A stretch of DNA of 64,000 nt from an uncultured Candidatus Saccharibacteria bacterium (GTDB lineage: Bacteria > Patescibacteriota > Minisyncoccia > Phycocordibacterales > UBA6065). Shown here one piece after another: positions 5,948 through 59,280 of the stretch. How positions within the stretch are numbered: position 1 is the first letter of the stretch; every line of letters begins with the position of its first letter. A model generated the notes under the pieces. The model ran no database searches and was not told where the DNA came from. It saw nothing but the letters and a program-made list of their open reading frames with translations. The stretch covers positions 25,481-89,480 of the forward strand of contig CAYJCZ010000001.1 in NCBI GenBank assembly GCA_964368835.1. The letters are read 5' to 3'. A program made the position numbers and the translations under genes.

Positions 5948-6514
5948 CTAGAGCTGTGTCTCCTTGAGGGCCTTATTTATCTCTGTAATTACTTCCTTTT
6001 TCTTGCTTTGAATGAGAGCGATAGTGTCTAAAGACACCTCGAGCACATCTTCCCCGCCCAAAAATTTCTTGGCATCGAGATATCCAAGAGAAGAAAGAAC
6101 ATGAATGAGAATAAGAGATTCAAATGCTATCTGCTCTTCCTTTGATTGAGTTAGTAAATCTTCTTTAAACAAAGACAGAAGCGTTGAAAATAATCTTTCA
6201 TTCCTTTCTTCACCTTGAACAAGCCTGCGCACAAGCGACAATACTCGAGCTCGAATAAGCGCATTGCCCGCAGGAGATTTCTTATCATGCGCTCCGGTGA
6301 GTCGCCACACCTCCCTGCCCTTAACCAATGAAAACGTAGCAAGTGAATATTCATCAAGCGCATACCTGAGCTTGGAGACAATGAGTCTCACACCCTGTGC
6401 CTTGGCACGTATAAGACCAAAATCTCGTGTATAGATCCAATACATCTTGGACGCCTCACCTGTTGGTGTGCTGCCTAAAATAAAACCTTCAGTCGTGTAA
6501 ACCGCGTATGACAT
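5948..6514 (-). CDS. recO: DNA repair protein RecO
   Basis: MSYAVYTTEGFILGSTPTGEASKMYWIYTRDFGLIRAKAQG... matches the RecO N-terminal OB-fold signature. Start chosen at the internal Met; the ORF track extends to 6694. Confidence 0.7.
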   Translation of the reverse strand: MSYAVYTTEGFILGSTPTGEASKMYWIYTRDFGLIRAKAQGVRLIVSKLRYALDEYSLATFSLVKGREVWRLTGAHDKKSPAGNALIRARVLSLVRRLVQGEERNERLFSTLLSLFKEDLLTQSKEEQIAFESLILIHVLSSLGYLDAKKFLGGEDVLEVSLDTIALIQSKKKEVITEINKALKETQL

Positions 6515-6632
6515 GCGTAGATTGTAGCAAAGAAGCGCCTTGCCTTTCAGGTATATATGAGGTAAAAACAAGTACGAAACCTCCCTCAACCTCAAGCCCT
6601 TTGTGAAAGGAATCATGTTTGTAAAAGGAATT

Positions 6633-7232
6633 ATGTCCAATACAACTGTAGACACGATTATTTTCGTCATTGTTGGAGCCTCAGGATCAGGCAAAACAAC
6701 GCTTTACAAGGCGCTCATGGAGCTTAAACCCTCTTTTAAGCGCTGTATCACAGAAACAACCCGTCTGCCTCGGAAAAATGAGATCCCGGGAAAAGATTAC
6801 TATTTCAGATATCCACCTTCTTTCGCACAAAGAAAGCTAGGTGGCTTCTATGTAGAAACCGCCAAAGTTCACGGCGAAGGCTGGTACGGAACTCCCAAAA
6901 AAGAATTCGACCAGCTCGTACGAGAAGGCGGCTGTATCATTCTGAGCGTTGACGTCGTTGGATTCATATCTGTCCGCGACTATGTAAGCGTACAGTTTCC
7001 TGGCGTTCAAGTGGCTGGCATATTCATCGATGTACCAGCTCCGTGGGAACAGACCCTGCGAGACCGAATGAAGGCTCGTGGTGACATGTCCCAATCAGAA
7101 ATCGACCGGCGAATCGAGACCGCACGGTTCGAACGAGATCACGCCAGTGCGTGTAACAAGCAAATTGTGAATGATGATTTCACGGTTGCGCTCGAAGAAC
7201 TCCTTCGCTTTGTCGATCACCGGACAAAGTAG
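6633..7232 (+). CDS. gmk: guanylate kinase
   Basis: P-loop GASGSGKTT and TTRLPRKNEIPGKDYYF, the Gmk TTR..PR..E..G.DY.F motif. Alternative starts are at 6603 (GTG) and 6615. Confidence 0.85.
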   Translation: MSNTTVDTIIFVIVGASGSGKTTLYKALMELKPSFKRCITETTRLPRKNEIPGKDYYFRYPPSFAQRKLGGFYVETAKVHGEGWYGTPKKEFDQLVREGGCIILSVDVVGFISVRDYVSVQFPGVQVAGIFIDVPAPWEQTLRDRMKARGDMSQSEIDRRIETARFERDHASACNKQIVNDDFTVALEELLRFVDHRTK

Positions 7233-7262: not shown

Positions 7263-10200
7263 TTATTTGCGAAGCGCTATTTTATAGATGTATTCTTCGA
7301 TAGCGAGTGTTGCAACATGAGAGAGATTTTCGTGCTCAATACCGGTAACCAATGTCACTCGTTTTATTTCTGAAGCAAATTTTGCCACAAGCTCCTTTCC
7401 TTTTTCATCTGAATCCACGAGAAGTACAACCTTATCCCCTACCGTGAGTTTTTCTGTCTTACGAAGTTCCTGTACTGATCGGATGAGGTCACGAATCACT
7501 CCTTCTTTTCGAAGTTCATCGGTAACTGTGATATCAAGTGCCGTATCAGTTTCCAAAGCGTTCACAACGGTCACCGATTTCACATTTACTTCATCTTGAA
7601 TAAGATCAATAAATTCCTGGCCCAAAGATTTTGATTTCACCTTAAGTGAAGAAAGTGGCTGGCGGACTTTTATATTCGCTTTTGCACGTTCCTGCAAGGC
7701 TATCGTCACAAGCTTTCGTGTTTCTGTCATATCGTCTATAACCTTTTCATCGAACTTCGAAACTGTTGGCCAAGTGGTCAAGTGCACGCTTTCTGGATCG
7801 TTGGTTGCCTTTACCTTTGAAAAGAGATGCTCGGCATAAAAAGGTGTATACGGAGCCATTATTTTCGAGAATTCTCTGAGGATATATCGTGTTGTTTCAA
7901 GCGCTGCATTTCTATCCGCAAGATCATCTGACTTAAATCGATCGCGTGAACGTCGCAAATACCATGTTGATAGATCATCAACAAATGCGAGGAGCGGTCG
8001 TGCACCCTTATCTATTTGATACTTCTCCAAACCAGTCGTCACCTCAGAGAGCGTCTCCAAAAATCGCGCGTGTATCCAAAGATCAAGAACATTCTTTGAA
8101 GTAAATGAGAGTGTTTCCTGTGTATTGCCCGTCGCATACATCTCATAGAATGAAAGCACGTTATCGAGTCTTTGTAGGAATTTCTTTGAGACCTCGTCCA
8201 CACCCTTTTCAGAGAATCGAACATCCTCTGCTTTTACCGCAGGAGATGATGCCAAGAAATATCGCAATGAGTCCGCACCATACTTTTCCACTGTAGGCAT
8301 AAGCGGCGGGTAATTATTCTTTGATTTAGACATTTTCTGACCGTCCTCTGCCAAGACAAGTCCGTTTACAACAACATTTTTGTACGGAGACTTACCAAAG
8401 AGTCCAACACCTAACACTATAAGCGAGTAGAACCAGCCTCGAGTTTGATCGAGTCCTTCAGCGATAAAATCAGCAGGATATCCAACGGTCCTATTGAAGA
8501 GTCCTCCCATAGGATTAAAATGCGGTCGAGCTTTGCCAACATAAAACGATTCCGCAAAAGGCATAGATCCTGACTCAAACCAACAATCAAATACTTCTGG
8601 TACTCGTTCGAGCTCTTCACCATCAGGTGCAACATAATCAATCTCATCTATAAATGGTCGATGGAGATCAAGGTTGTAATCTTCGTTGTGTGGCAGTGGC
8701 ACAAAATCCAAAGAATGCATTTCACCAGGTTCCTTAAAATATCGTCTTTCATCGTGGAGAACCTTGTCTGAGCTTGGTGTATCAGCAACACTGTGACTGA
8801 GCGTGTTAAGAATTGCTCCGTGGCTCACAATAAGGATTTTCTTGCCAGAGTGTCGTTCGTCTATATCAAAGAGTGCGCTGAAAGAGCGCTTTTTAAGCTC
8901 GTCAGGTGTCTCCATACCAGGATAAAGGCCATGTGTTCGAACGTATTTATCCGTCTCGGTCCACAACTTACCTTCCCTCTCTGAGCCAACCTTAAATTCA
9001 CGCAAACGAACATCGTATACAATTTCATTTTCAGGTATACCTAATTCTCGAGCATATATTTTCGCTGTTTCTTTTGTTCTCAAAAAGTCTGATGCGACAA
9101 TCACATCAATTCCAGATTTTGCGAGCCTCTTTGCTTGTGCAAGAACCTGCACCCTACCCTTTTCTGTAAGATTATATTTTGCAGTAACATCTGAGTTTGA
9201 AATTCCGAGAGCATTAGCTTCTGATTCACCATGTCGAGCAAGAGTATATTTATTTCCAGATCGCTTTACTAACTTTGAAAGACCTTCGATCGTACCAACG
9301 GTGTATGTCTTACCTGATTTCAAACCGCGCCAAACTGGTATTGGTGCACCCCAGAAACGAGAGCGTGATATCGCCCAATCTCGAGCACCCTCAAGCCAAT
9401 TACCAAAGCGACCATCCCTGATATCTTCAGGTGTCCATCCGATTTTCTTGTTTGCTTTTACTAGATTACTTTTAAAATTTGTAACCTTAACGAACCATGA
9501 CGATGTCGCATAGTTTAGAAGCGGAGTATCACATCTCCAGCAATGTGGATACGAGTGGATGATTTTCTTTTTTTCTAAAAGCAGTCCGTTGTGAGCAAGC
9601 CATTTTATGACCTCGATGTCTGTCTTTTGATGACCATCCTTCTCTACCGCCTTTGGTTTTGCATCTAATCCTGCAAAATCACTAACTTCAGGCTTTATTT
9701 TGCCATCCATCCCGACGTGCTGAATAAATGGAAGCTTTTCTCGCTCACCGAGTTTCATGTCATCCTCTCCGAATGCAGGGGCGATATGCACGATTCCTGA
9801 TCCGTCTGTCGTTGTTACAAAATCTGCCGCATATACCTTGAATGCATTGGTGATATTTTTTGTAGCGTTGGTGTTGTAGTACGGGAAAAGTGGCTTGTAC
9901 TTTTTTCCAACGAGCTCGCGACCAAGCACCGTCTTTATGATTTTATGTTCTGCTCCAAAAACAGATTCTGCTAGCGCTTTTGCAACCACATAAGTGGTTT
10001 CTGCTATTTTGCTTGTGACAAATACGTATTCAATATCAGGATGAACAGCGAGTGCAACATTTCCAGGGAGTGTCCATGGTGTTGTTGTCCAAGCGACGAA
10101 ATATGTCTTTGGCGTATCTATAAGCTCAAACTGTATGAATACAGAAATATCTGTTATGTCTTTATATCCCTGATTTACCTCAAAGTTTGAAAGCGTTGTC

Positions 10201-10757
10201 TCACATCGAGGACAGATCTGCATAGACTTGAAACCTTCATAGACGAGTCCTTTGTCATGAAGCGTCTTGAAAGCCCACCAGACAGACTGAGTGTAGCCAG
10301 GATCCATAGTTCGATAATCATCAACCATATCTACCCATCGACCGATACGAGGGATGATATCGCGCCATTCCTTGGTGTAGCGAAGAACCGCTGCGCGAGC
10401 TGCTGCATTGAACTTCCCTATTCCGTATTCGAGAATATCTTTCTTTGTTTTAAGACCAAGTTCTTTTTCAACAAGGTTTTCTACTGGTAGACCGTGACAG
10501 TCCCAACCCCAGCGTCGAGAAACATGATAGCCTCGCATTGTTTTGTAGCGAGGAATGACGTCTTTTATAGTAGTTGGCAAAAGGTGTCCGAAGTGTGGAA
10601 GACCTGTTGCAAATGGAGGACCGTCAAAAAATACGAACTCTTTTCCGCCCTTTCTCAGAGATTTGCCGAAAATGTCGTTTTTTTGCCAAAATGAAAAAAC
10701 CTTGTCTTCTATTTCAACAAGCTTTGTCTTGGGTTTTGTATCAGGTGCATCAGCCAT
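7263..10757 (-). CDS. ileS: isoleucine--tRNA ligase with an inserted histidine-phosphatase (PGAM-like) domain
   Basis: HIGH region (PHFGHLLP), CP1 editing region, WGAPIPVW and KMSKS motifs. An inserted domain of about 180 aa carries RHGESEAN, SDFLRTKETA and IVSHG motifs (residues about 510-690). Start chosen at MADAPDTKPK; the ORF track extends to 10778. Confidence 0.9.
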   Translation of the reverse strand: MADAPDTKPKTKLVEIEDKVFSFWQKNDIFGKSLRKGGKEFVFFDGPPFATGLPHFGHLLPTTIKDVIPRYKTMRGYHVSRRWGWDCHGLPVENLVEKELGLKTKKDILEYGIGKFNAAARAAVLRYTKEWRDIIPRIGRWVDMVDDYRTMDPGYTQSVWWAFKTLHDKGLVYEGFKSMQICPRCETTLSNFEVNQGYKDITDISVFIQFELIDTPKTYFVAWTTTPWTLPGNVALAVHPDIEYVFVTSKIAETTYVVAKALAESVFGAEHKIIKTVLGRELVGKKYKPLFPYYNTNATKNITNAFKVYAADFVTTTDGSGIVHIAPAFGEDDMKLGEREKLPFIQHVGMDGKIKPEVSDFAGLDAKPKAVEKDGHQKTDIEVIKWLAHNGLLLEKKKIIHSYPHCWRCDTPLLNYATSSWFVKVTNFKSNLVKANKKIGWTPEDIRDGRFGNWLEGARDWAISRSRFWGAPIPVWRGLKSGKTYTVGTIEGLSKLVKRSGNKYTLARHGESEANALGISNSDVTAKYNLTEKGRVQVLAQAKRLAKSGIDVIVASDFLRTKETAKIYARELGIPENEIVYDVRLREFKVGSEREGKLWTETDKYVRTHGLYPGMETPDELKKRSFSALFDIDERHSGKKILIVSHGAILNTLSHSVADTPSSDKVLHDERRYFKEPGEMHSLDFVPLPHNEDYNLDLHRPFIDEIDYVAPDGEELERVPEVFDCWFESGSMPFAESFYVGKARPHFNPMGGLFNRTVGYPADFIAEGLDQTRGWFYSLIVLGVGLFGKSPYKNVVVNGLVLAEDGQKMSKSKNNYPPLMPTVEKYGADSLRYFLASSPAVKAEDVRFSEKGVDEVSKKFLQRLDNVLSFYEMYATGNTQETLSFTSKNVLDLWIHARFLETLSEVTTGLEKYQIDKGARPLLAFVDDLSTWYLRRSRDRFKSDDLADRNAALETTRYILREFSKIMAPYTPFYAEHLFSKVKATNDPESVHLTTWPTVSKFDEKVIDDMTETRKLVTIALQERAKANIKVRQPLSSLKVKSKSLGQEFIDLIQDEVNVKSVTVVNALETDTALDITVTDELRKEGVIRDLIRSVQELRKTEKLTVGDKVVLLVDSDEKGKELVAKFASEIKRVTLVTGIEHENLSHVATLAIEEYIYKIALRK

Positions 10758-10792
10758 AGATACGATGTACATTAGCAATTTTTAGCCATTTT

Positions 10793-15591: not shown

Positions 15592-16890
15592 GTGGCCATG
15601 AGACAAATAATAATTGTTGACGATGTAGCACCGGAGGCTAATGCGATGCTTCAGGCACTTTATTCACGAAGCCCGAAGAGCGTAACAGAACATCTTGAGC
15701 AGGTAAGAAAGAATGGCGCGGAGAAATTTATGGCCTCGTACTACGTCGGGTACGGCCACAAGTCTATTGGAGACTGCGGTACCACTTCTATCTTTGTCGA
15801 AAACGTTTCAATGCTTGTAGCAAAGGCTGTTCAGGACTGGGCACTTTATAACGGTCAGGAGGCTTCGACTCGATACATTGATATGTCCAAGCAGGAAATT
15901 CTTAACCCGCTTGGTTCAAAGGAAGGAAAAGTGATCCAAGATGAATGGATGAGATTTTATATGCACGTACTTGAGGCACTCATTCCAACCCTGAAGGAAC
16001 GATTCCCTATCAAAGAGGGCGATAAAGAAGTCGTATACGAAAAAGCTATCCGAGCCCGCGCGTTTGATATCGCTCGAGGATTCCTCCCTGCTGGTGCAAC
16101 GACATATGCGAGCTGGCACACAAATCTCCGCCAGGCGCATGATCATCTCAAAGAAATGCGAAACCACCCTCTCGAAGAAGTTCGCATGACAGCACTTGAG
16201 ATTTTGAAGTCACTTCAGACTAAATATTCTTCAAGCTTCCTCCACAAAGAATATCCAAGTGAAGAAGAATACATCAAAAAATCTATCAGCGAGTTCGCTT
16301 ACTACGATGAAAAATCAATAAAGAAGTTTTCATACAAAGTTCGACTTGATCTTAAGGGCTTAAAGACTCACCAGAAACTTCTCAAAGAGCGCCCAGCAAA
16401 AGCAGAACTCCATCAGCGATTCCGACAGTATGGCGACATGGTCTTTTCATTCCCTCTCGATTTCGGATCATACCGAGATCTTCAGAGGCAGCGATCAGCT
16501 GTGCAGGAAATGCCTCTTCTTTCAACCAAACACGGTTTCTATTCTTGGTATCTCGAGCAGCTTCCAAAAGATCTTCGAAAAGAAGCAGAAAAAGTACTCA
16601 AGGAACAGGAAAAACGAATCGCAAAACTCAAGACAACAGCGGAGGTAAAGCAGTACTACACCGCTATGGGATATACGATTGCCGTAAAAATGTCATGCCA
16701 TCTCCCTTCTGCTGTATACATTGCAGAGCTAAGATCATCTGACACTGTTCATCCAACGCTTAGAGTTCAAGCGCAGCGTATGGGTGATGCCATCAAGGCG
16801 TCGGTTCCAGGTATAGCGATGCATCACGACACTTCCCCAGGAACATGGAATATAAAGCGCGGTAATCAGGATATTGTGAGGAAGGATTAA
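15592..16890 (+). CDS. thyX: flavin-dependent thymidylate synthase ThyX-like protein with tandem duplicated Thy1-like domains
   Basis: GYGHKSIGD, VSMLVAKAV-QDW-ALYNGQEASTRY and ...LRQAHDHLKEMR... align to the Thy1 family consensus (GHxS, vS..vahqlvRHR.aSyn.eSqRY, NLR..H). A second weaker copy follows (RQR ... ELRSSDTVHPTLRVQAQRM). Total 432 aa versus about 220-250 for single-domain ThyX. Confidence 0.6.
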   Translation: MAMRQIIIVDDVAPEANAMLQALYSRSPKSVTEHLEQVRKNGAEKFMASYYVGYGHKSIGDCGTTSIFVENVSMLVAKAVQDWALYNGQEASTRYIDMSKQEILNPLGSKEGKVIQDEWMRFYMHVLEALIPTLKERFPIKEGDKEVVYEKAIRARAFDIARGFLPAGATTYASWHTNLRQAHDHLKEMRNHPLEEVRMTALEILKSLQTKYSSSFLHKEYPSEEEYIKKSISEFAYYDEKSIKKFSYKVRLDLKGLKTHQKLLKERPAKAELHQRFRQYGDMVFSFPLDFGSYRDLQRQRSAVQEMPLLSTKHGFYSWYLEQLPKDLRKEAEKVLKEQEKRIAKLKTTAEVKQYYTAMGYTIAVKMSCHLPSAVYIAELRSSDTVHPTLRVQAQRMGDAIKASVPGIAMHHDTSPGTWNIKRGNQDIVRKD

Positions 16891-28834: not shown

Positions 28835-28907
28835 CCGCCCATAGCTCAGTCGGTAGAGCAGCTCCCTTTTAAGGAGAGGGTCCCAGGTTCGATTCCTGGT
28901 GGGCGGA
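28835..28907 (+). tRNA. tRNA-Lys (anticodon TTT)
   Basis: CCGCCCA-TA-GCTC-AGTCGGTA-GAGC-A-GCTCC-CTTTTAA-GGAGA-GGGTC-CCAGG-TTCGATT-CCTGG-TGGGCGG-A. Canonical D and T arms, with one G-A mismatch at the base of the anticodon stem. Confidence 0.8.
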
Positions 28908-28996
28908 CAAGTGTAATCATTGTCGGTGGACAAATATTTTGACTTTAAAGCTTTGCGGAGCTACTCTTTGAAAGTTGCATCCCTTGCAATGCCTCA

Positions 28997-45146: not shown

Positions 45147-46490
45147 CTACGAGATGAGAGATCGTATATGATTCACTTCCTGAAGAAGTATCTGGTTGGA
45201 CTTTATCTCCTCTTTAACCTTTTCGCAAGAATGAATTACAGTCGTGTGATCACGGCCTCCAAGCTTCTCACCAATAGATGGGTATGAGATATTCATGTCT
45301 TCACGCAGAATATACATAATTACCTGACGCGGTTTAACAACTTCTTTCTTTCGAGTCTTCTCGTAGATGTTATTTTCTTCAATATTATAGAAATCTGAGA
45401 CGATTTTAACGACATCTTTAATAGAAACGAGCTTTTTAGGTTTAGCGCTGTTCTTTATAAGGTTCTTTATATCAATAATATTAAGTTCCCTACCTCGAAC
45501 CTGAGTCTGCATGGCTACAGAATTGATGATTCCTTCGAGTTCTCGAATATTTCCATCAACTGAGCTCGCGAGAAAGTCTAAAAGATCAGATGGAAGCGAC
45601 ACATTCTGCTTTGAGAGTTTGTTTTTAAGGATGATAAGTCTTGATTCATAGTCAGGTGCGGCAACATCAACAATCATTCCCGAGCCAAGTCGTGATTTTA
45701 TTCGATCTTCAAGGTCAGGCATGTGGTTTGGATGCTGATCTGATGAGCAGATAAGCTGCTTGTTGTTCTCCTTGAGGGTGTTGAAGAGATGGAAGAATTC
45801 TTCTTGAGACTTTTCCTTGCTTGAGAAGAATTGTACGTCATCCATAATCAAAACATCGTACTTTCGGTACTTCTCTTTGAACTGATTTGCCTTACCAAGC
45901 TGGAGTGAGTTCATGAAATCAACAGCAAATCGTTCAGAAGTAACATAAAACACCTTCTTTGCCGGATCTTTTGCTTTGATGTGGTTCCCTACCGCCTGCA
46001 TTAGATGAGTCTTTCCTCTTCCTGTGCCTCCGTAGATGTAGAGAGGGTTATATGCAATACCTGGATTTTTCATTACCGCCTGAGCTGCAGCATGAGCAAG
46101 CTCGTTAAATGGCCCAACCACAAAGGTATCAAAGGTATATTTAGGATTTAGGTTATCGTCTTTGCTTACATAAAACTCCTGAAGAGGTAGTTCGTACGCT
46201 GGAGCAGTCTTTCGCTCTATCTCAAGAGGTTCCTTACGCTCCTGGTTCTTTGAAATGACATATTCAAGAGATCGAACATCGTTTCCGAAGTCTCGGAGGT
46301 GCTTCAAGATCGTCTTATGGAATTTGCTTGAGAGCCATTCCTTTGCAAACACGCTTGGTACCGCAACATAGATAACACCATCATCTTGTTTATGGATGTA
46401 GGTGTCGCGGAACCACATGTTGAAGTTCGCTTTCGAGACCTGAAGTTCTACCGTCCCTAAAACGCTGTCCCACAATTTTTTTATATCCAT
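45147..46490 (-). CDS. dnaA: chromosomal replication initiator protein DnaA
   Basis: AAA+ Walker A GGTGRGKTHLMQAVGNH, Walker B, C-terminal DNA-binding domain (helix-turn-helix, ...HTTVIHSCEKV...). Start chosen at MDIKKLWD; the ORF track extends to 46532. Confidence 0.95.
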   Translation of the reverse strand: MDIKKLWDSVLGTVELQVSKANFNMWFRDTYIHKQDDGVIYVAVPSVFAKEWLSSKFHKTILKHLRDFGNDVRSLEYVISKNQERKEPLEIERKTAPAYELPLQEFYVSKDDNLNPKYTFDTFVVGPFNELAHAAAQAVMKNPGIAYNPLYIYGGTGRGKTHLMQAVGNHIKAKDPAKKVFYVTSERFAVDFMNSLQLGKANQFKEKYRKYDVLIMDDVQFFSSKEKSQEEFFHLFNTLKENNKQLICSSDQHPNHMPDLEDRIKSRLGSGMIVDVAAPDYESRLIILKNKLSKQNVSLPSDLLDFLASSVDGNIRELEGIINSVAMQTQVRGRELNIIDIKNLIKNSAKPKKLVSIKDVVKIVSDFYNIEENNIYEKTRKKEVVKPRQVIMYILREDMNISYPSIGEKLGGRDHTTVIHSCEKVKEEIKSNQILLQEVNHIRSLIS

Positions 46491-46651
46491 AGTTGTTTTT
46501 ATCCGGAGGTGAAGTAAGTATAAAGGTTCCAAAAAATTGTAGTACTTGTGAGCATTAAGTAAATGTGTTAATAATATGTGAACAAGTTGTTAATAAAGAT
46601 TTTCATTTGGCCCTGTACAGCGGAGGCAAAATGATATAGATTACTTACCCT

Positions 46652-51309: not shown

Positions 51310-53115
51310 TTATAACTGTGCGTTCTTCTTTGCTTCTTTGATTGCGAGTATCTGTGATGGATCTGAGGTAATTATTTGGTCTTCGGTATAAGAAGCAATG
51401 ATTTTTATGGCCACATGCTTTAGTCCGACGAAGAATATGCCCTCCCCTACGTCTGATTCGAGCAATAAGTACTTTTCCTCATCTGTGAGGTTAAAGACTT
51501 GCTGGAGTCTGTCTATAGACGATGGAGACTGTTTTAGAAGGATCTGGATAGAAGAGTTGGTAATGATTGGTGTTCCATAAGGAGATTTAAGGAAGTCGTC
51601 CACGTCCTGGGTGATTGTTGCCACTCCTAGGAAGTATTTTCGTCCTCTTTTTGCCAAACCAAGCAAGAATGAGGCCGTATCTTCAGATTTCATCATCCAC
51701 CACGCCTCGTCGATCACAAGAAGGCGCTTTTTGAGGTTTTTTCGAATCGCATTCCAGATGTAGTGGGTAACGATATACATTGCAACAGGTTTAAGCTCCT
51801 CTTCCATGTCTCGAAGTGAGAATACGATGAATTTGGCACCGATATCGACGTTTGTTGGCTGATTTATAAAGCCAGACCAAGTACCTTTGGTGTATTTGGT
51901 GAGTCTTTGAACAAGCGACTCCCCTCCTTCCATACCAGCAAGCACTAATTCGAAGTCAGAAAGGAGTGGTGGCTGGATAGATTTGAAGTCAGAATCAGGA
52001 GTGATGTCTTTGAGGGCGTATGTTTCGGTAATCGCCTTGTCGATAAGTGCGTCCTCCTCAGGTGTAAGACCACCCATCATGATTCGGAAGAGGCCAACAA
52101 GGTTAATGATGTTTGAACGAAGCACATCTGCGCCAGATTCGTCTTCTCGAGGAACAGGAAGATCAAAAGGATTGATATGGTGCTCTGAGTTAAGTGAAAT
52201 GTTGAAATATTTTCCACCCGTAGCTTCTGCAAGGAATTCATATTCCCTTTCAGGGTCAATCACAATAACATCCGTATCAAACATGAGGGTTCGAAGGATT
52301 TCAAGCTTTGTTGTGTATGACTTTCCTGCACCAGATTTTGCAAAGGTGATTGAGTTATAGTTTTCAAGAGAAAATCGGTCGAAAAGCACAAGTGATGAGT
52401 TGTGGCGGTTGATTCCGTAAAGAATTCCCTTGTCAGACGTAAGGTCAAAGGAAATAAACGGGAAAAGTGAAGAAAGTGGCGATGAGTTGAGCTTTGAATG
52501 CACAAGAAGTTCATCTGTTGCTGTAGGAAGGTTTGATTTATAGCCTTGTTCTTGCTGGAAAAGTGCTGGTTTTACGTATACAAGCTTTGATTCAAGGATT
52601 GATTTGATTTCAGACTCTGTTTTATCAAGCTCTGCTTCAGAATCACCATAAATAGAGATATATACACCCACATCAAAAAGTTTTTCAGTAGCTTGCTGGA
52701 GCTGGTCTCGGAGATTTTCAAGATCCTGGTATGCAGTATCAAGCATTGGGTCTCGTACAAGCCCCTTCTGTTCCCTGATTGCAATCTGGCTTTGTACTTC
52801 AGCCACCTTCTTTTGGAATTGTCGTAGCACCTTTGCTGTTTCAACAGGATGAATGAATATTGAAATGTTGAAGACTTTGTCGAGATTGATGATTGGAGCA
52901 AACCAGCTTTCTCCGAGGAAGCGTGGGTATGAAATTACAAAGAAGCTACGGACAATTTTATCTCCAAGGTTGAGTTCTCGAGGAGAAACCTTAAGTGCAG
53001 AGGGTGCAATAACATCCTTGAGCTCCAAAACACCAGCCTCATAGATTTCCTGAGGCATTATTGGAGCAATTCGCGCTCCCTCGTCTTTCTTTTTTAAAAA
53101 ATCAAAGATTCCCAT
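51310..53115 (-). CDS. VirB4/TrbE/CagE-family type IV secretion ATPase, C-terminal ATPase portion
   Basis: Walker A FAKSGAGKSYTT and Walker B LLVIDEAWWMM (DEAW), the VirB4 arrangement. Start chosen at MGIFDFL, 4 nt after the stop of the upstream N-domain ORF. Confidence 0.8.
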   Translation of the reverse strand: MGIFDFLKKKDEGARIAPIMPQEIYEAGVLELKDVIAPSALKVSPRELNLGDKIVRSFFVISYPRFLGESWFAPIINLDKVFNISIFIHPVETAKVLRQFQKKVAEVQSQIAIREQKGLVRDPMLDTAYQDLENLRDQLQQATEKLFDVGVYISIYGDSEAELDKTESEIKSILESKLVYVKPALFQQEQGYKSNLPTATDELLVHSKLNSSPLSSLFPFISFDLTSDKGILYGINRHNSSLVLFDRFSLENYNSITFAKSGAGKSYTTKLEILRTLMFDTDVIVIDPEREYEFLAEATGGKYFNISLNSEHHINPFDLPVPREDESGADVLRSNIINLVGLFRIMMGGLTPEEDALIDKAITETYALKDITPDSDFKSIQPPLLSDFELVLAGMEGGESLVQRLTKYTKGTWSGFINQPTNVDIGAKFIVFSLRDMEEELKPVAMYIVTHYIWNAIRKNLKKRLLVIDEAWWMMKSEDTASFLLGLAKRGRKYFLGVATITQDVDDFLKSPYGTPIITNSSIQILLKQSPSSIDRLQQVFNLTDEEKYLLLESDVGEGIFFVGLKHVAIKIIASYTEDQIITSDPSQILAIKEAKKNAQL

Positions 53116-53119
53116 ATGT

Positions 53120-53755
53120 TTATTTGAGTGATATTGGCTTTTCGGTGTCTCCAGGATTGAAAATTTTGTAGAAAAGCTCGACGATCTCCTCGGTACCGAG
53201 CTCAACGGTTCGAATTCCACAACGTACAAGACCCTGAGTTACCACACTCACCCTTTGCTCGAGCTGGCTTCTGCGTTCTTCAAAGTCTGCAATTTTCTTT
53301 TCCGCAGTCTGCGCTGCGTTCTTTTTTTTGCCCAACATATCTGCCACACCGCCCGAGTTTATCATTGCGGGGGTGTATGGAACCACAACAAAGAATGTTT
53401 TTGTCATGATGTTTGAGTTTTCCGTAAAGTTTTTTATGAACTGAATGTATTCTCGTGTCTGGATTTTGAGAAGATCGCTCATTTGTTCCTTAAGTCGGTT
53501 TTCTAGGAGAGCAATATACGGTCGAATATCGAGTTTTCGAGACTGAATGAAAATTTGTACTGAAAAATCGAGTGAGTTAAGGAAGTTTTGGAATTGAAGC
53601 AGGATAGATTGCTGCTCATCTGCAGATTTAAGAGCAAAGTTAAGTGACGATGCCATAACAATTCCACGCATGGAGTCATCTTTGAGGATCACTATCCCCT
53701 GTCTGATCTCTTTTATGGGAACGAACTCTTGAGTAGTTTTAGCGTTTACTGCCAT
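53120..53755 (-). CDS. VirB4-family N-terminal domain protein (split from ATPase portion)
   Basis: FVPIKEIRQGIVILKDDSMRGIVMASSLNFALKSADEQQSILLQFQNFLNSLDFSVQIF matches the conserved N-terminal domain of Gram-positive-type VirB4 homologues (PrgJ/TcpF-like). Stop is at 53120-53122. Confidence 0.6.
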   Translation of the reverse strand: MAVNAKTTQEFVPIKEIRQGIVILKDDSMRGIVMASSLNFALKSADEQQSILLQFQNFLNSLDFSVQIFIQSRKLDIRPYIALLENRLKEQMSDLLKIQTREYIQFIKNFTENSNIMTKTFFVVVPYTPAMINSGGVADMLGKKKNAAQTAEKKIADFEERRSQLEQRVSVVTQGLVRCGIRTVELGTEEIVELFYKIFNPGDTEKPISLK

Positions 53756-55311: not shown

Positions 55312-57651
55312 TTAAGATTCTTTGTCTTCACCATCTTCCGCGTCGGCTTTTTTAGGGCCGGGAGCTCCCCCTTCATCAGCACCTGTTGCCCAAGCATCAT
55401 TTTTCTTCTTAGTTGCCTTAGACCTGCTCTTTTTGAGCTCACCAGCGAGACCTGTTCCCCACTCCATCTCTGGCTCACCATTTTTATCCACAATCGGATT
55501 TCCAGCAGGATCCTTCTTCTGTTTACCAGATCCTTCTTTACCAATTATTTTATTTTTAATAATGTTAGCCACCGCATTACCCGCCGTTTTCTTTTCGCTC
55601 AGATCCCCCATGGTTTTTGCGATTTTTAATGACTGCTGAAGTGCCTGTGTCTGATTTCTGGTCTGTATAAATTTGTCTTCGTAATTGGTTATTGCCTTAT
55701 CAAGATCGGCCTCTATCAAACTACCTATTTTGTCAGCCTCCTCGATTTCATCACCTGTTGCCTCTTTCTCAAGATTCATAACATAAAGGTATTTCTCGCT
55801 TGCCTTAAGTGCATTTGCTTGAGCAATATCATTCTGACTAATAAGCTTCTGATGCAATTCACGAAATGCCTTGGCCTGCGAGATAATTTTTATTTTATCT
55901 TTACGGACAGTTCGTTCTCTTTGGACCATAAAGTTTTCTAGGCCTCTTGATGCCTCATCAAAATTTTGGTTGACTCCGTTGTGGTCAGCTGCCATAGCAG
56001 CCTTCTCGAGGTTGTTAACAGGAATATTTGCATCAACCATAAGGTTTGTGATTCCCTGTGCTTCCTTTTGCGCATCTGTCTTCTGTGCTTTTGTATAAAG
56101 ATTACCTGCTTCCGTTCTCAGTTTGTCAGCATTCTTCTGCTGAGCTTTTTTACCTATAGCAATCCAGTTAAAGATACTTGATCTACGTGATTCAGCGTAT
56201 GCCATCTGCTTATCAAGACCATCCTTGTCATCACCAAACTTTGCTGCGTATTCTTTGTCGGCTTTCTCCTGATCCTTGGTCATTTGACTGAATCCACCCT
56301 TACCTCCTGGTTTTCCTACATCAACACCAACTGTTTTTGCGATTGATGCAAAAGGCGCAGCTCCACGTATGTCGAAGCTTGATTCTGCACCCTTGCGTGC
56401 AACAGCAAGGCTGGCTTTACCTCGAATCTGGTTAACACTGCGAGAGAATGCATTACTACCCACTTTACCTGCTGCCATATTCTGAAGATTTTCATTCTGA
56501 GTCATGTTTGCTGCACGGGAACCAATGAATCTTCGTCCACCAAACGCGGTTAAGGCAATACCACTTGATCCAACTCTTGTCATAAAGTTACTTGCACCAC
56601 TTGCAATACCTGAGGCCGCCTTACCCAACTGACCCGCTGAATCTTTAGCAACCTTAAGACAAATAAGGAGCGCACAAATAACAATGATGTACTTAAATAC
56701 CTTTCCCGTGTCGATACCTGCAACAACTGCGGGATTTCCGCTAAAGAATGATGCCCAAACACTGCTTGCCTCCATGTTATTAATAAGTTGAAGGCTTATG
56801 TAAAGCATCAAGAGGTAGACAATTGGAAACGTCACAGCATCTACAAGTTCACCCCACCACTTCTTTGAGTATTCTTCGATTTGTGGGAGAAGACCACCGA
56901 TGAAGCCGATAGGTGATAGAACGAGCAAGAAAATTATTGTCACAGCGCGTGTCATAAATAGTATCGCGGTGTACATAAATACGTACGTAGCAACCAAGAC
57001 TACAATAAGCTTGAGAACTGGAGTAATAATTCCACTATCGTTTAGAGTTTTTGCAAGGAGAGCTGCGTTTCCAGCAGGATCCTCCCAGAGTCTGAAAATC
57101 TCCAGCTTTGACGCAATGAGGGCGCTGATACTAGTGCTGGCTCCATTGGCTTTAAGTGATGCAAGAATTCCGCCGTAGAGCCAATTTCCGAAAATATTAC
57201 TTACATCAACAAATACCTTTGTAAAGTAAAGGCTAAAGTTGATGATTAGGGCCGCGATGATAAGTTGAGTGAGTCTGCGTTTTGTATCAAAGTTACTTAG
57301 ATTAACTATTGTTTGAATTGATATCCAGATGAGCGTAAAGATAAAGAACAGGTTGCAGATGTCACGAATAACTACCCAAGATTGGTTTATAACCGTAAGG
57401 TTTCCGAAAATATACGCGGTACCAAGTGAGAATCTCACCGCATAGTCCAAAATCATACCGGTAAACGCCATCGCTCCAGCCGCCAAAGGCAAAACAATAA
57501 GCTCAAAAAGCTTTCCAATGTAGTAGGTCGGATCTACGAATTTAAGAAGATCAGTAACACCCTGTGCGTGCGTGACGTCAGGTGTTATGAGTAGCAAAGC
57601 CACCAGTGCGCCGATGAAGAGATATGTTTTTTTGTTAAAGAAAGATTTCAT
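55312..57651 (-). CDS. VirB6/TrbL-like polytopic membrane protein with long hydrophilic C-terminal tail
   Basis: A signal peptide is followed by at least 7 TM helices over about 400 aa, then about 380 aa of charged, Lys/Ala/Gly-rich sequence. Confidence 0.5.
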   Translation of the reverse strand: MKSFFNKKTYLFIGALVALLLITPDVTHAQGVTDLLKFVDPTYYIGKLFELIVLPLAAGAMAFTGMILDYAVRFSLGTAYIFGNLTVINQSWVVIRDICNLFFIFTLIWISIQTIVNLSNFDTKRRLTQLIIAALIINFSLYFTKVFVDVSNIFGNWLYGGILASLKANGASTSISALIASKLEIFRLWEDPAGNAALLAKTLNDSGIITPVLKLIVVLVATYVFMYTAILFMTRAVTIIFLLVLSPIGFIGGLLPQIEEYSKKWWGELVDAVTFPIVYLLMLYISLQLINNMEASSVWASFFSGNPAVVAGIDTGKVFKYIIVICALLICLKVAKDSAGQLGKAASGIASGASNFMTRVGSSGIALTAFGGRRFIGSRAANMTQNENLQNMAAGKVGSNAFSRSVNQIRGKASLAVARKGAESSFDIRGAAPFASIAKTVGVDVGKPGGKGGFSQMTKDQEKADKEYAAKFGDDKDGLDKQMAYAESRRSSIFNWIAIGKKAQQKNADKLRTEAGNLYTKAQKTDAQKEAQGITNLMVDANIPVNNLEKAAMAADHNGVNQNFDEASRGLENFMVQRERTVRKDKIKIISQAKAFRELHQKLISQNDIAQANALKASEKYLYVMNLEKEATGDEIEEADKIGSLIEADLDKAITNYEDKFIQTRNQTQALQQSLKIAKTMGDLSEKKTAGNAVANIIKNKIIGKEGSGKQKKDPAGNPIVDKNGEPEMEWGTGLAGELKKSRSKATKKKNDAWATGADEGGAPGPKKADAEDGEDKES

Positions 57652-57654
57652 GGG

Positions 57655-59280
57655 CTATTGGACAACTATTCTATGGTCGTGACGATCTAAAGTATTTCCC
57701 TGCTGGTCGTAGATAACTGTTTGAAGTGTATAGTTTCCAGTAGTTGCACCCACTTTTTTGTCTGCTGTGATCCTGATTGTGAAAGGTGCATTGTCATCCG
57801 TCCAGATGTCACTCCATCCTACCGTTGCCTGAGGTGCAGAATTGACTGGGAAGCTTGCAGAACTGCCGTCCGCTCGCACAAATTCAACGTTGAAGTTTGT
57901 AAATGCTAGAGCAAATGGTACATCTGACATGCTTGCTGTGTCTTTGAATGCTGTGCGCATAAGCAATCCATCGGTTCGATAATTAGTATTCATACTAATT
58001 TCATAGAAGAAAGGATTGCCGTCGTTTACCGCTATAGATGTACCTGGATTGAGTTGTAGATCAAGTGTCTGTGTACCTGTTGGGCCGCCGATTGTAGGAG
58101 TACCTGTTGAACCGCCGCCATTATTGACGTTAACAGGAGGTGGGTTGCTTATTGCGGCATTAACTTCGGCTGTCCCAACTGTAAGACCCGTATTAATTGC
58201 ATTTGAAAGATCGGTGCCGCCAGTTATTACAGTTTGTCGTGCTGCTGCATTGTAGTCTACTGGATCCACAACAGTTTTTCGTGGGCCTCGTGTACCACCC
58301 AAAAGACCGAATGACTTATCCATGATCTGCTTCATAAGTTGGTTTGAGAGCGCATCAAAAACAGCGTTGATGTCGTTTGCAAGACCGATCTGATCAAGAG
58401 GCATGCCGAGGGTTTTGGTTAGTTGCTCTTGAACTATTGCACCCGGTGTCTCAATCGTACAGATTGGATTTGCAAGTTCAGAACCGAGAGTTTGTCCACC
58501 TCCTTCTTTAATGAATCGTGCTGTCGCTTCTGCCTGTGTTTCGCAGTACTTCCAGTTTTTGAATCCCCTGCCCCAATTAAGGTATGTTTTTTCCTTTTCT
58601 TGAACATCAAAAATTCGTTTTGAAATTTCATCCTGCGCAATAGCAAATGCTCCGTACGCATTATTCTGAGGAATTGTTGTAACTTGAATCCAGTTATCCC
58701 ATCCAACACCTCCATTGCTGTCTACAAATCCGTTTACATTACTTATGATGTTGCTCAATGAACACGCTGACCTTTGTCTGTACGGTAGACGGCTTTGAGC
58801 AAGTGCAACACGAAGTTGGAATGAGAATCGAGAACAAAGAAACGGTGCATCTTTTGAAAGGAAATCCCCAATCACATCATCAGCAGCATCACTTAACATG
58901 CCGCTCAGATCCGTTGCAAATCCTGGGTTTCCTTGGAATCCGTTGTTGATCCAGGCAACCGTTTTTTGGGTTATGTCATTTAAAAGTGCCTTGGCCATCT
59001 TTACGACAAGTGGTTTGAAGATGCAATCTTCAACAAAACTTCCAGCCACACTGACTTTTGATGTCGCATCGTTTTCAATAGCAACTCTAGTTATTGCATC
59101 AGCTGCAGCACTGAATCCGAGTGCGGTTGCAATTTGAGCTATGCAAGTAAGAACTTGAGCTTCAGATTTTTTTGGATAGAAAAAGAAACCGCTCGGAATC
59201 AAAAGAGTGATGAGGAGGAATGAAAGTACGGTTTTTTTGCAAAAACGAGAAAGCATTATCTCGAAAAGTATAGAGGTCAA
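57655..59280 (-). CDS. secreted protein (541 aa), hypothetical
   Basis: N-terminal signal/TM; Gly/Thr-rich PPVNVNNGGGSTGTPTIGGPTGT linker. Confidence 0.4.
   Translation of the reverse strand: MTSILFEIMLSRFCKKTVLSFLLITLLIPSGFFFYPKKSEAQVLTCIAQIATALGFSAAADAITRVAIENDATSKVSVAGSFVEDCIFKPLVVKMAKALLNDITQKTVAWINNGFQGNPGFATDLSGMLSDAADDVIGDFLSKDAPFLCSRFSFQLRVALAQSRLPYRQRSACSLSNIISNVNGFVDSNGGVGWDNWIQVTTIPQNNAYGAFAIAQDEISKRIFDVQEKEKTYLNWGRGFKNWKYCETQAEATARFIKEGGGQTLGSELANPICTIETPGAIVQEQLTKTLGMPLDQIGLANDINAVFDALSNQLMKQIMDKSFGLLGGTRGPRKTVVDPVDYNAAARQTVITGGTDLSNAINTGLTVGTAEVNAAISNPPPVNVNNGGGSTGTPTIGGPTGTQTLDLQLNPGTSIAVNDGNPFFYEISMNTNYRTDGLLMRTAFKDTASMSDVPFALAFTNFNVEFVRADGSSASFPVNSAPQATVGWSDIWTDDNAPFTIRITADKKVGATTGNYTLQTVIYDQQGNTLDRHDHRIVVQ

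Follow-up and report, generated by a model that had tools for sequence, protein, structure and literature searches.

Why should an aminoacyl-tRNA synthetase (aaRS) hold a complete histidine phosphatase within its catalytic domain? The question is raised by ileS, the isoleucyl-tRNA synthetase (IleRS) gene on the reverse strand of the 64,000-nucleotide stretch analysed here (hereafter the window), which comes from contig CAYJCZ010000001.1 of an uncultured Candidatus Saccharibacteria bacterium. A preliminary description of this DNA, made from the letters alone, had reported a continuous IleRS open reading frame (ORF) of 1171 codons with all the usual landmarks, and within it an extra domain of about 180-220 amino acids (aa). 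Every motif string that it quoted was found at the place given, and the extra domain is a 185 aa insert (aa 509-693). The answer that we favour, with a confidence a little above even, is that a housekeeping type-2 IleRS (IleRS2) has become a two-enzyme polypeptide, in which a surface hairpin of the catalytic domain encloses a PhoE/PspA-like, active phosphatase with a diffusible substrate, the association itself being under selection.

The insert matches the Pfam model His_Phos_1 (PF00300) over aa 513-669 with E=9.8e-27 and 94.3 bits against a cut-off of 21.7, so the hidden Markov model search proposed at the outset gave the expected family. Its limits were set by comparison with insert-less type-2 IleRS fragments such as P0027. 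It lies where insert-less IleRS2 have about 4 residues, between "...LSG" and "..DLHRPxID", and is flanked by '...GTIEGLSKLVKRSG' and by the native segment that starts the second catalytic half, with very short linkers on both sides and the native IleRS segments of both flanks preserved. From the start of WGxPxPxW to the start of DxWFxSG there are 255 aa in the window protein, versus 59-84 aa in 74 insert-less IleRS2. The interval first proposed for the insert, 8709-9266, corresponds to aa 505-690 and was roughly right, although the insert proper has somewhat different limits (given below). GC content across the insert is 0.41-0.45, the same as in the rest of the gene. AlphaFold2 (AF2) confidence is high through both insert/IleRS junctions, and by prediction the insert forms an alpha/beta phosphatase domain of its own, with a phosphoglycerate-mutase-like fold. 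No other His_Phos_1 domain was found in the 64-kb window. The domain and its catalytic residues are placed as follows.

8700..9254, reverse strand: inserted branch-1 histidine phosphatase domain, aa 509-693, 185 aa, Pfam His_Phos_1.
9228..9236, reverse strand: RHG motif with R515, the nucleophile H516 and G517; R and H in 367/367 domains covering the position.
9078..9080, reverse strand: R567, the second phosphate-binding Arg, in the motif S563-x3-R567-x3-T571; R in 380/381 domains, the exception being a gap in a fragment.
8997..8999, reverse strand: E594, presumed general acid/base; E in 374, D in 5 and another residue in 2 of 381 domains.
8820..8822, reverse strand: H653, the second catalytic His (IVSHG); H in 377/378 domains covering the position.

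These residues stand in the strings LARHGESEAN (aa 513-522), SDFLRTKETA (563-572), REFKVGSEREGKLW (593-606) and IVSHGAIL (650-657), and R567 is followed by E594 at a spacing of 27 residues, which we take to be that of R62 and E89 in the cofactor-dependent mutase dPGM. The counts come from a set of 381 domains made up of homologues, 50%-identity cluster representatives and genome loci, and the R-H-R-E-H set is intact in all complete domains of this set (five have Asp in place of the Glu), and the departures that remain are truncated or frameshifted fragments. The full branch-1 signature claimed for the insert is thus both present and conserved. Across 121 aligned full-length proteins, R515, H516, G541, S563, R567, E594, E623, R631 and H653 are 100% conserved and G517, N522 and T538 at least 98% conserved, whereas most remaining insert positions are at 20-50%. 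A cap-like stretch at aa 599-622 is poorly conserved and rich in indels, with about 30 residues missing there in some members, and N509 and the PLPHN junction are almost invariant among homologues. On the evidence of these alignments, the catalytic residues of the phosphatase are under strong purifying selection.

Such conservation bears directly on the idea that the insert is a non-catalytic module for dimerisation, scaffolding or tRNA binding, kept for its shape only. Many branch-1 family members are dimeric, the free-standing relatives described below are often tandem doubles, and some synthetases hold 2-4 copies, which might reflect a need for paired domains. Nevertheless, a pseudoenzyme should lose its catalytic residues, and here R515, H516, R567, E594, H653, N522, S563, E623 and R631 are essentially invariant in 381 domains that are otherwise 30-45% identical; we consider this explanation improbable.

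The host protein, as judged from its sequence, is a complete type-2 IleRS with HIGH, KMSKS and editing motifs intact. It scores 855.8 bits against a cut-off of 621.4 with the NCBIfam equivalog TIGR00392 (ileS), the match being split by the insert, and it stays under every cut-off of the NCBIfam models for ValRS, LeuRS and MetRS. Likewise, the two halves of the Pfam tRNA-synt_1 match (E=3e-126) flank the His_Phos_1 match. Its best solved relative is the Priestia megaterium IleRS2 (8C8U; E=2e-209, TM 0.70/0.79), and solved-structure matches to IleRS2 and eukaryotic IleRS reach E values of about 1e-200 versus about 1e-86 for IleRS1; the full-length predicted model resembles IleRS2 and yeast IleRS. 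The parts of the gene other than the insert are as follows.

7263..10778, reverse strand: ileS, type-2 (eukaryote-like) IleRS with nested phosphatase, a continuous ORF of 1171 codons from TTG; stop codon at 7263-7265.
9255..10778, reverse strand: N-terminal part of the IleRS, aa 1-508, with the first half of the Rossmann/HUP fold and the CP1 editing domain.
Within aa 1-508, reverse strand: native hairpin-helix GKTYTVGTIEGLSKLVKRSG, retained beside the insert.
10584-10595, reverse strand: HIGH motif HFGH, aa 62-65.
10071-10091, reverse strand: CP1 editing motif WTTTPWT.
9330-9353, reverse strand: WGAPIPVW, aa 476-483.
8139..8699, reverse strand: second half of the IleRS catalytic domain, aa 694-880.
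8646-8666, reverse strand: LHRPFID.
8568-8588, reverse strand: DCWFESG.
8430-8450, reverse strand: DQTRGWF.
8322-8336, reverse strand: KMSKS, aa 815-819.
7266..8084, reverse strand: anticodon-binding helical domain and type-2 C-terminal domains, aa 899-1171 (Pfam Anticodon_1 at 899-1043, DUF5915 at 1044-1171).

This is the same order as in the P. megaterium IleRS2 (8C8U) and the yeast cytoplasmic IleRS (8WND), namely a HUP/Rossmann fold split by the CP1/editing domain, then the anticodon-binding domain and DUF5915, and the IleRS2 motifs HIGH, KMSKS, WTTTPWT, WGxPIPxW, LHRPxID, DxWFESGSMP and DQTRGWF are all present. In 8C8U about 21 residues lead from WGTPLNVWE(458) to H480 ('..IELHKPYVDD'), whereas the equivalent distance from W483 to H697 in the window protein is 212, and 8C8U has after LHKPYVDD a CxxC knuckle that the window protein is without. 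PHFGHLLP lies at aa 61-68 and DCWFESGSMPFA at aa 731-742. In 70 aligned homologues, H62, G64, T231-T233, K815 and K818 are invariant, as is the Thr-rich CP1 motif WTTTPWTLPGN (aa 230-240), and H65 is at least 90% conserved. The length of 1171 aa holds for the ORF as listed but probably not for the gene itself, since in the close homologues P0121 and P0123 the protein begins at the ATG that is codon 8 here (MADAPDT), 7 codons inside the TTG-started ORF; the real ileS would then be 7263..10757, with 1164 aa and its start ATG at 10757. No second ileS is present within the 64-kb window, and the enzyme is presumably the sole, housekeeping IleRS of its small genome, most likely that of a member of the Paceibacterota (Parcubacteria/Patescibacteria).

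An insert of this kind could in principle be an artefact, whether an assembly chimera, a frameshift fusing two genes, or an intein. The best 120 full-length homologues, drawn from NCBI, ENA, JGI and Logan, are 53-95% identical to the window protein and 1123-1213 aa long, and all 120 have the same Pfam architecture. When an alignment of the phosphatase/IleRS junction was scanned against one genome per GTDB species, at least 541 species of Paceibacterota/Parcubacteria matched. The junction is covered in all 80 of the loci examined from these species, and in 70 of the 80 an uninterrupted frame runs for over 1090 codons; the remaining ten fall short of this, in most cases at loci that reach a contig end. 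Groups named among these 80 loci are Paceibacterota, Parcubacteria and Taylor-, Kaiser-, Nomura-, Adler- and Lloydbacteria. The orthologue survey that the preliminary description called for therefore found the same insert in hundreds of related species, and the independent assembly of at least 541 species genomes with one in-frame design, together with the uninterrupted frames and the uniform GC content, speaks against a chimera or frameshift, as does the agreement of all 120 best proteins. As for an intein, no Hint domain was detected by Pfam, the insert begins with N509-K510 and not with Cys or Ser, and the HN at the far junction (697-698) is followed by Glu in a native IleRS segment, a similar HN being present in the insert-less P0030; the earlier argument against an intein is thereby borne out. 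We regard an artefactual origin as so improbable that it needs no further weighing.

Instead, on present sequence comparisons, the nested architecture is old and vertically inherited. Mean pairwise identity is 43% for the insert and 64% for the IleRS core, and the two sets of identities are correlated (Pearson 0.89), which fits one old acquisition followed by vertical inheritance of a faster-evolving yet constrained insert. In its most conserved region, the window core shares no more than 52% identity with any of the 74 insert-less IleRS2, compared with 60-95% for insert-bearing proteins, in a sample that is biased and in which losses are possible.

What kind of phosphatase has been inserted? 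By fold comparison of the predicted structure, the insert is closest to small-molecule phosphomonoesterases, for which the values lie at 19-21: PspA 20.9, a Bacillus anthracis PGM-like protein 20.7, a riboflavin-pathway HFP 20.6, PhoE 20.6, GpgP 19.7 and CobC 19.2. The mutase dPGM follows at 17.5, and the protein phosphatases and non-catalytic members SixA, PGAM5, Sts and tau55 are at 14-15. The nearest phosphatases thus include PhoE/YhfR (1H2E, 1EBB), the PspA phosphoserine phosphatase (4IJ5) and the riboflavin-pathway HFP (9MMH), as well as glucosyl-3-phosphoglycerate phosphatase (6S2Q, 4QIH) and CobC (6E4B). PhoE/PspA-type enzymes are free-standing and have known substrates, whereas the insert is embedded in another enzyme and its cap varies within the clade. 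None of the NCBIfam phosphatase equivalogs reached its cut-off with the insert, the best being dPGM_arch with 62 bits versus 225.

We considered several named families as candidates and rejected them. Assignment to dPGM is opposed by the dPGM_arch score and by that of GpmB (52 versus 261 bits); mutase-specific dPGM residues are ERHYG after the Glu and HGNS after the second His, and the insert reads E594-FKVG and SH653-GAIL. The insert is also unlike the SixA phosphohistidine phosphatase, both in its equivalog score and in lacking that family's short fold of about 155 aa. On the synthetase side, the mupirocin-resistance models MupA and MupB gave 692 and 731 bits against a cut-off of 1900, and NF040702 (ileS_w_GNAT) gave 307 bits against 1999, with no acetyltransferase domain found by Pfam. 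NF040702 is nevertheless the nearest curated precedent, being a bacterial IleRS with an extra enzyme, which is a GNAT there and a phosphatase here.

An exhaustive HMMER search with the insert retrieved 5752 proteins at E<=1e-3 and 448 at E<=1e-10. Of the nearest cluster representatives, 146 were newly retrieved; 126 of them lie within a class Ia synthetase (IleRS or ValRS) and 20 are free-standing, the latter being single domains of about 200 aa or, often, tandem doubles of 400-450 aa; no host protein other than IleRS or ValRS occurs among these 146. Embedded copies are mostly at the insertion site of the window protein, which we call site A. In some IleRS a phosphatase is found at a second site, B, between 'DCWFESGSMPYA..HYPF' and 'FPADFIAEGxDQTRGWF': P0386 has its phosphatase only there, with site A intact and insert-less, and site-B copies are also present in P0278, P0363 and P0259. 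A third site, C, lies between the last catalytic-domain helix and the 'LDxWI' start of the anticodon-binding domain and is occupied in P0278, P0363, P0355 and P0323. The copy number per IleRS is 1-3 across these sites, with RH(G/A)...R...E...H intact in all. The type represented by P0278 and P0390 (locus L081 8001-12260), with copies at B and C, was recovered on six independent contigs, one of them 1.06 Mb long. Copies at different sites have nearest-neighbour identities of only 35-44%, a divergence too deep for independent capture to be told from ancient relocation within the gene. The phenomenon is not strictly limited to IleRS, as P0243, a 1161-aa fragment from ENA found on two contigs, is a ValRS (valS 411 bits versus ileS 199) with four His_Phos_1 domains, one of them immediately after WWGHRIPVWY, the equivalent of site A.

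We would like to note one further relative separately. P0375 (1066 aa, JGI, on an 11-kb contig) is an IleRS with three putative in-frame foreign domains, namely an IS200-like/REP-associated tyrosine transposase in CP1 (aa 326-472), a His_Phos_1 domain at site A (675-863) and a GNAT domain after DxWF (935-1063), and may be a mis-assembly.

The placement of the phosphatase in synthetases can be read in two ways. That it is found almost only in IleRS and ValRS, repeatedly and in several copies, suggests that the link to the synthetase is itself selected. At the same time, it occurs in different IleRS loops, with site B away from the active site by topology, which speaks against its being coupled to the synthetic site by a precise geometry. 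A selected association without fixed geometry is what we favour because members of this subfamily occupy three different loops of IleRS, with 1-3 copies per protein, as well as a ValRS. The opposing possibility is that the phosphatase is coupled to the nucleotide by-products of aminoacylation (pyrophosphate (PPi), ADP, AMP or the breakdown of Ap4A/Ap3A) or regulates the enzyme through a bound phosphorylated metabolite. For such coupling one can cite the near confinement of the subfamily to IleRS, with a single ValRS, its recurrence at three loops in several copies with the catalytic residues always intact, the very short linkers and high junction model confidence, which suggest fixed packing on the catalytic domain, and the near invariance of N509 and the PLPHN junction. 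However, the three insertion sites lie in different regions of the fold, and site B would, by class I Rossmann topology, lie away from the active site, in the loop where the helix beginning with DxWFxSG ends. Nor is there an explanation for why IleRS, and rarely ValRS, should have this need among some 20 synthetases, and we know of no branch-1 enzyme that hydrolyses PPi. We consider this version less likely than the one that we favour, but a serious competitor to it.

In a broader form of the same thought, the phosphatase would be a third active site of a class Ia synthetase, beside those for synthesis and editing, and tied to aminoacylation in Patescibacteria. It is prompted by the placement of the domain at three or more loops of IleRS and in ValRS, with no other host protein found, and the site may, for example, remove a nucleotide or a phosphorylated by-product by which charging is limited, mend tRNA ends that carry a phosphate, or control IleRS through a phospho-metabolite signal. 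We hold this to be a possibility of the minority kind, and all coupled readings combined carry, in our estimation, a similarly limited share of the weight.

The healing of tRNA ends may also be considered on its own. Here the phosphatase would repair tRNA-Ile ends by removing a 3'- or 2'-phosphate, or one from an opened 2',3'-cyclic phosphate, before charging. Site A is on the catalytic domain, which binds the acceptor end, and the association is specific to tRNA-handling enzymes. Nevertheless, the domain is not consistently basic (its isoelectric point has a mean of 7.1 and a range of 5.1-9.3 among homologues), its nearest folds are small-molecule enzymes, sites B and C would be unlikely to reach the acceptor end, and no RNA-repair genes adjoin ileS in the window. 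To our knowledge, no branch-1 histidine phosphatase acts on RNA ends, and we give this explanation little credence.

For a diffusible small substrate, as in the reading that we prefer, four observations speak: the domain is most similar in fold to metabolite phosphatases, its cap varies, its charge is inconsistent and close to neutral, and it is tolerated in three different loops. Given the invariant catalytic set and the fold, the insert would be an active phosphomonoesterase working by the standard superfamily mechanism. H516 would attack the phosphate to give a phospho-histidine, while R515, R567 and H653 would hold the phosphate and E594 would protonate the leaving group. The substrate would be a small, diffusible phosphorylated compound, either a metabolite or a nucleotide; an adenylate or tRNA in the synthetic site is probably not what is hydrolysed. 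What selection maintains would be the association with a class Ia synthetase, be it physical or stoichiometric, and not a fixed geometry. Three points weigh against this reading or limit it. The association with IleRS and ValRS only could equally mean direct functional coupling to class Ia aminoacylation; conserved catalytic residues would not amount to proof of turnover; and, as no characterised equivalog cut-off is reached, substrate specificity is unreadable from homology.

The genes around ileS are of housekeeping kind (argS, dut, tmk, glyA, gmk and recO), and no phosphatase- or RNA-repair-related gene is found among its flanking genes in the window. This context bears on the proposal that the phosphatase confers resistance by inactivating an IleRS inhibitor that is phosphorylated or mimics an adenylate. 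IleRS is in general an antibiotic target, and the GNAT family, a domain of which is also carried by the candidate phyla radiation (CPR) IleRS P0375, includes enzymes that acetylate aminoacyl-nucleotide antibiotics. Against this, no biosynthetic or resistance cluster is nearby, the architecture is clade-wide and not patchy, and the MupA/MupB scores are far under their cut-off. Adenylate mimics are phosphodiester-like or sulfamoyl compounds and so not substrates for branch-1 chemistry, and we know of no natural IleRS inhibitor with a phosphomonoester. A resistance function is in our view very improbable. The preliminary description had itself speculated on adenylate proofreading, action on a phosphorylated tRNA end and antibiotic resistance, and nothing in the present analysis favours them.

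Branch-1 phosphatases joined to a second enzyme are known from PFK-2/FBPase-2 (1BIF), mycobacterial MutT1 (Nudix and His_Phos; 3FJY, 9CXX) and the RNase H/acid phosphatase Rv2228c (NF005567). In these the domains are arranged end to end, whereas in the window protein the phosphatase is nested in the catalytic domain of its partner, and the partner is an aaRS. CP1, the leucine-specific domain of LeuRS and the INS subdomain of IleRS2 are likewise clade-inherited modules in loops of class Ia synthetases; these bind or edit aminoacyl-tRNA, whereas the insert belongs to an unrelated superfamily and has its own active site. The INS subdomain is described in bioRxiv 10.64898/2026.02.03.703510, a 2026 survey of 96,219 IleRS domain architectures from which the words phosphatase and Patescibacteria are both absent.

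Several other features of the window were recorded in passing. A RecO-like ORF (5948..6694, reverse strand) and a guanylate-kinase ORF (6603..7232, forward strand) overlap at their 5' ends by 92 bp as listed; since the RecO_N match starts at residue 65, the real recO start is probably further downstream. The tRNA at 28835..28908 (forward strand; Rfam tRNA 68.8 bits) was labelled 'tRNA-Stop, anticodon TTA' by ARAGORN. Read manually in the standard register, its acceptor stem has 7 bp and its variable loop 5 nt, the anticodon stem CUCC/GGAG is mismatched at G27.A43, and the anticodon loop is CUUUUAA. This places UUU in the anticodon, which makes it most simply a tRNA-Lys(UUU) and not a suppressor. 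The presence of a full dnaA (45147..46532, reverse strand; DnaA_N, Bac_DnaA and Bac_DnaA_C) suggests that the chromosomal replication origin may be close by. Two adjacent ORFs on the reverse strand (55312..57651, 779 aa, and 57655..59280, 541 aa) have no Pfam match at E<=1e-5 and are adjoined by a gene for a TraG-like P-loop ATPase (51310..53229). Lastly, in the 432 aa ORF at 15592..16890 (forward strand) a ThyX (Thy1) match is confined to the first 210 residues, with no family assigned to the C-terminal half.

The preliminary description knew of no aaRS with this architecture. As a matter of occurrence it is not new, being common in public Patescibacteria genomes under unspecific names, for instance 'class I tRNA ligase family protein' (NCBI). 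As a matter of record it may be, as the full-text literature, where subscription journals are thinly covered and an earlier mention is possible, yielded no account of a histidine phosphatase domain in an aaRS. Annotation is affected, as the generic NCBI names hide the architecture, and the three permissive loops of IleRS may be useful for synthetase engineering. Should the phosphatase turn out to be a mere passenger, unrelated to the work of the synthetase, the protein would still be a clear example of nested domain fusion in reduced genomes. The aaRS are closely studied, and few accessory catalytic domains are known to be built into them, most of these for editing. In the present case the catalytic domain of IleRS encloses an unrelated enzyme whose active site is invariant and which is kept across hundreds of species of a major uncultured lineage. 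This points to a requirement, so far unrecognised, in the way that very small, host-dependent cells manage translation or their nucleotides.

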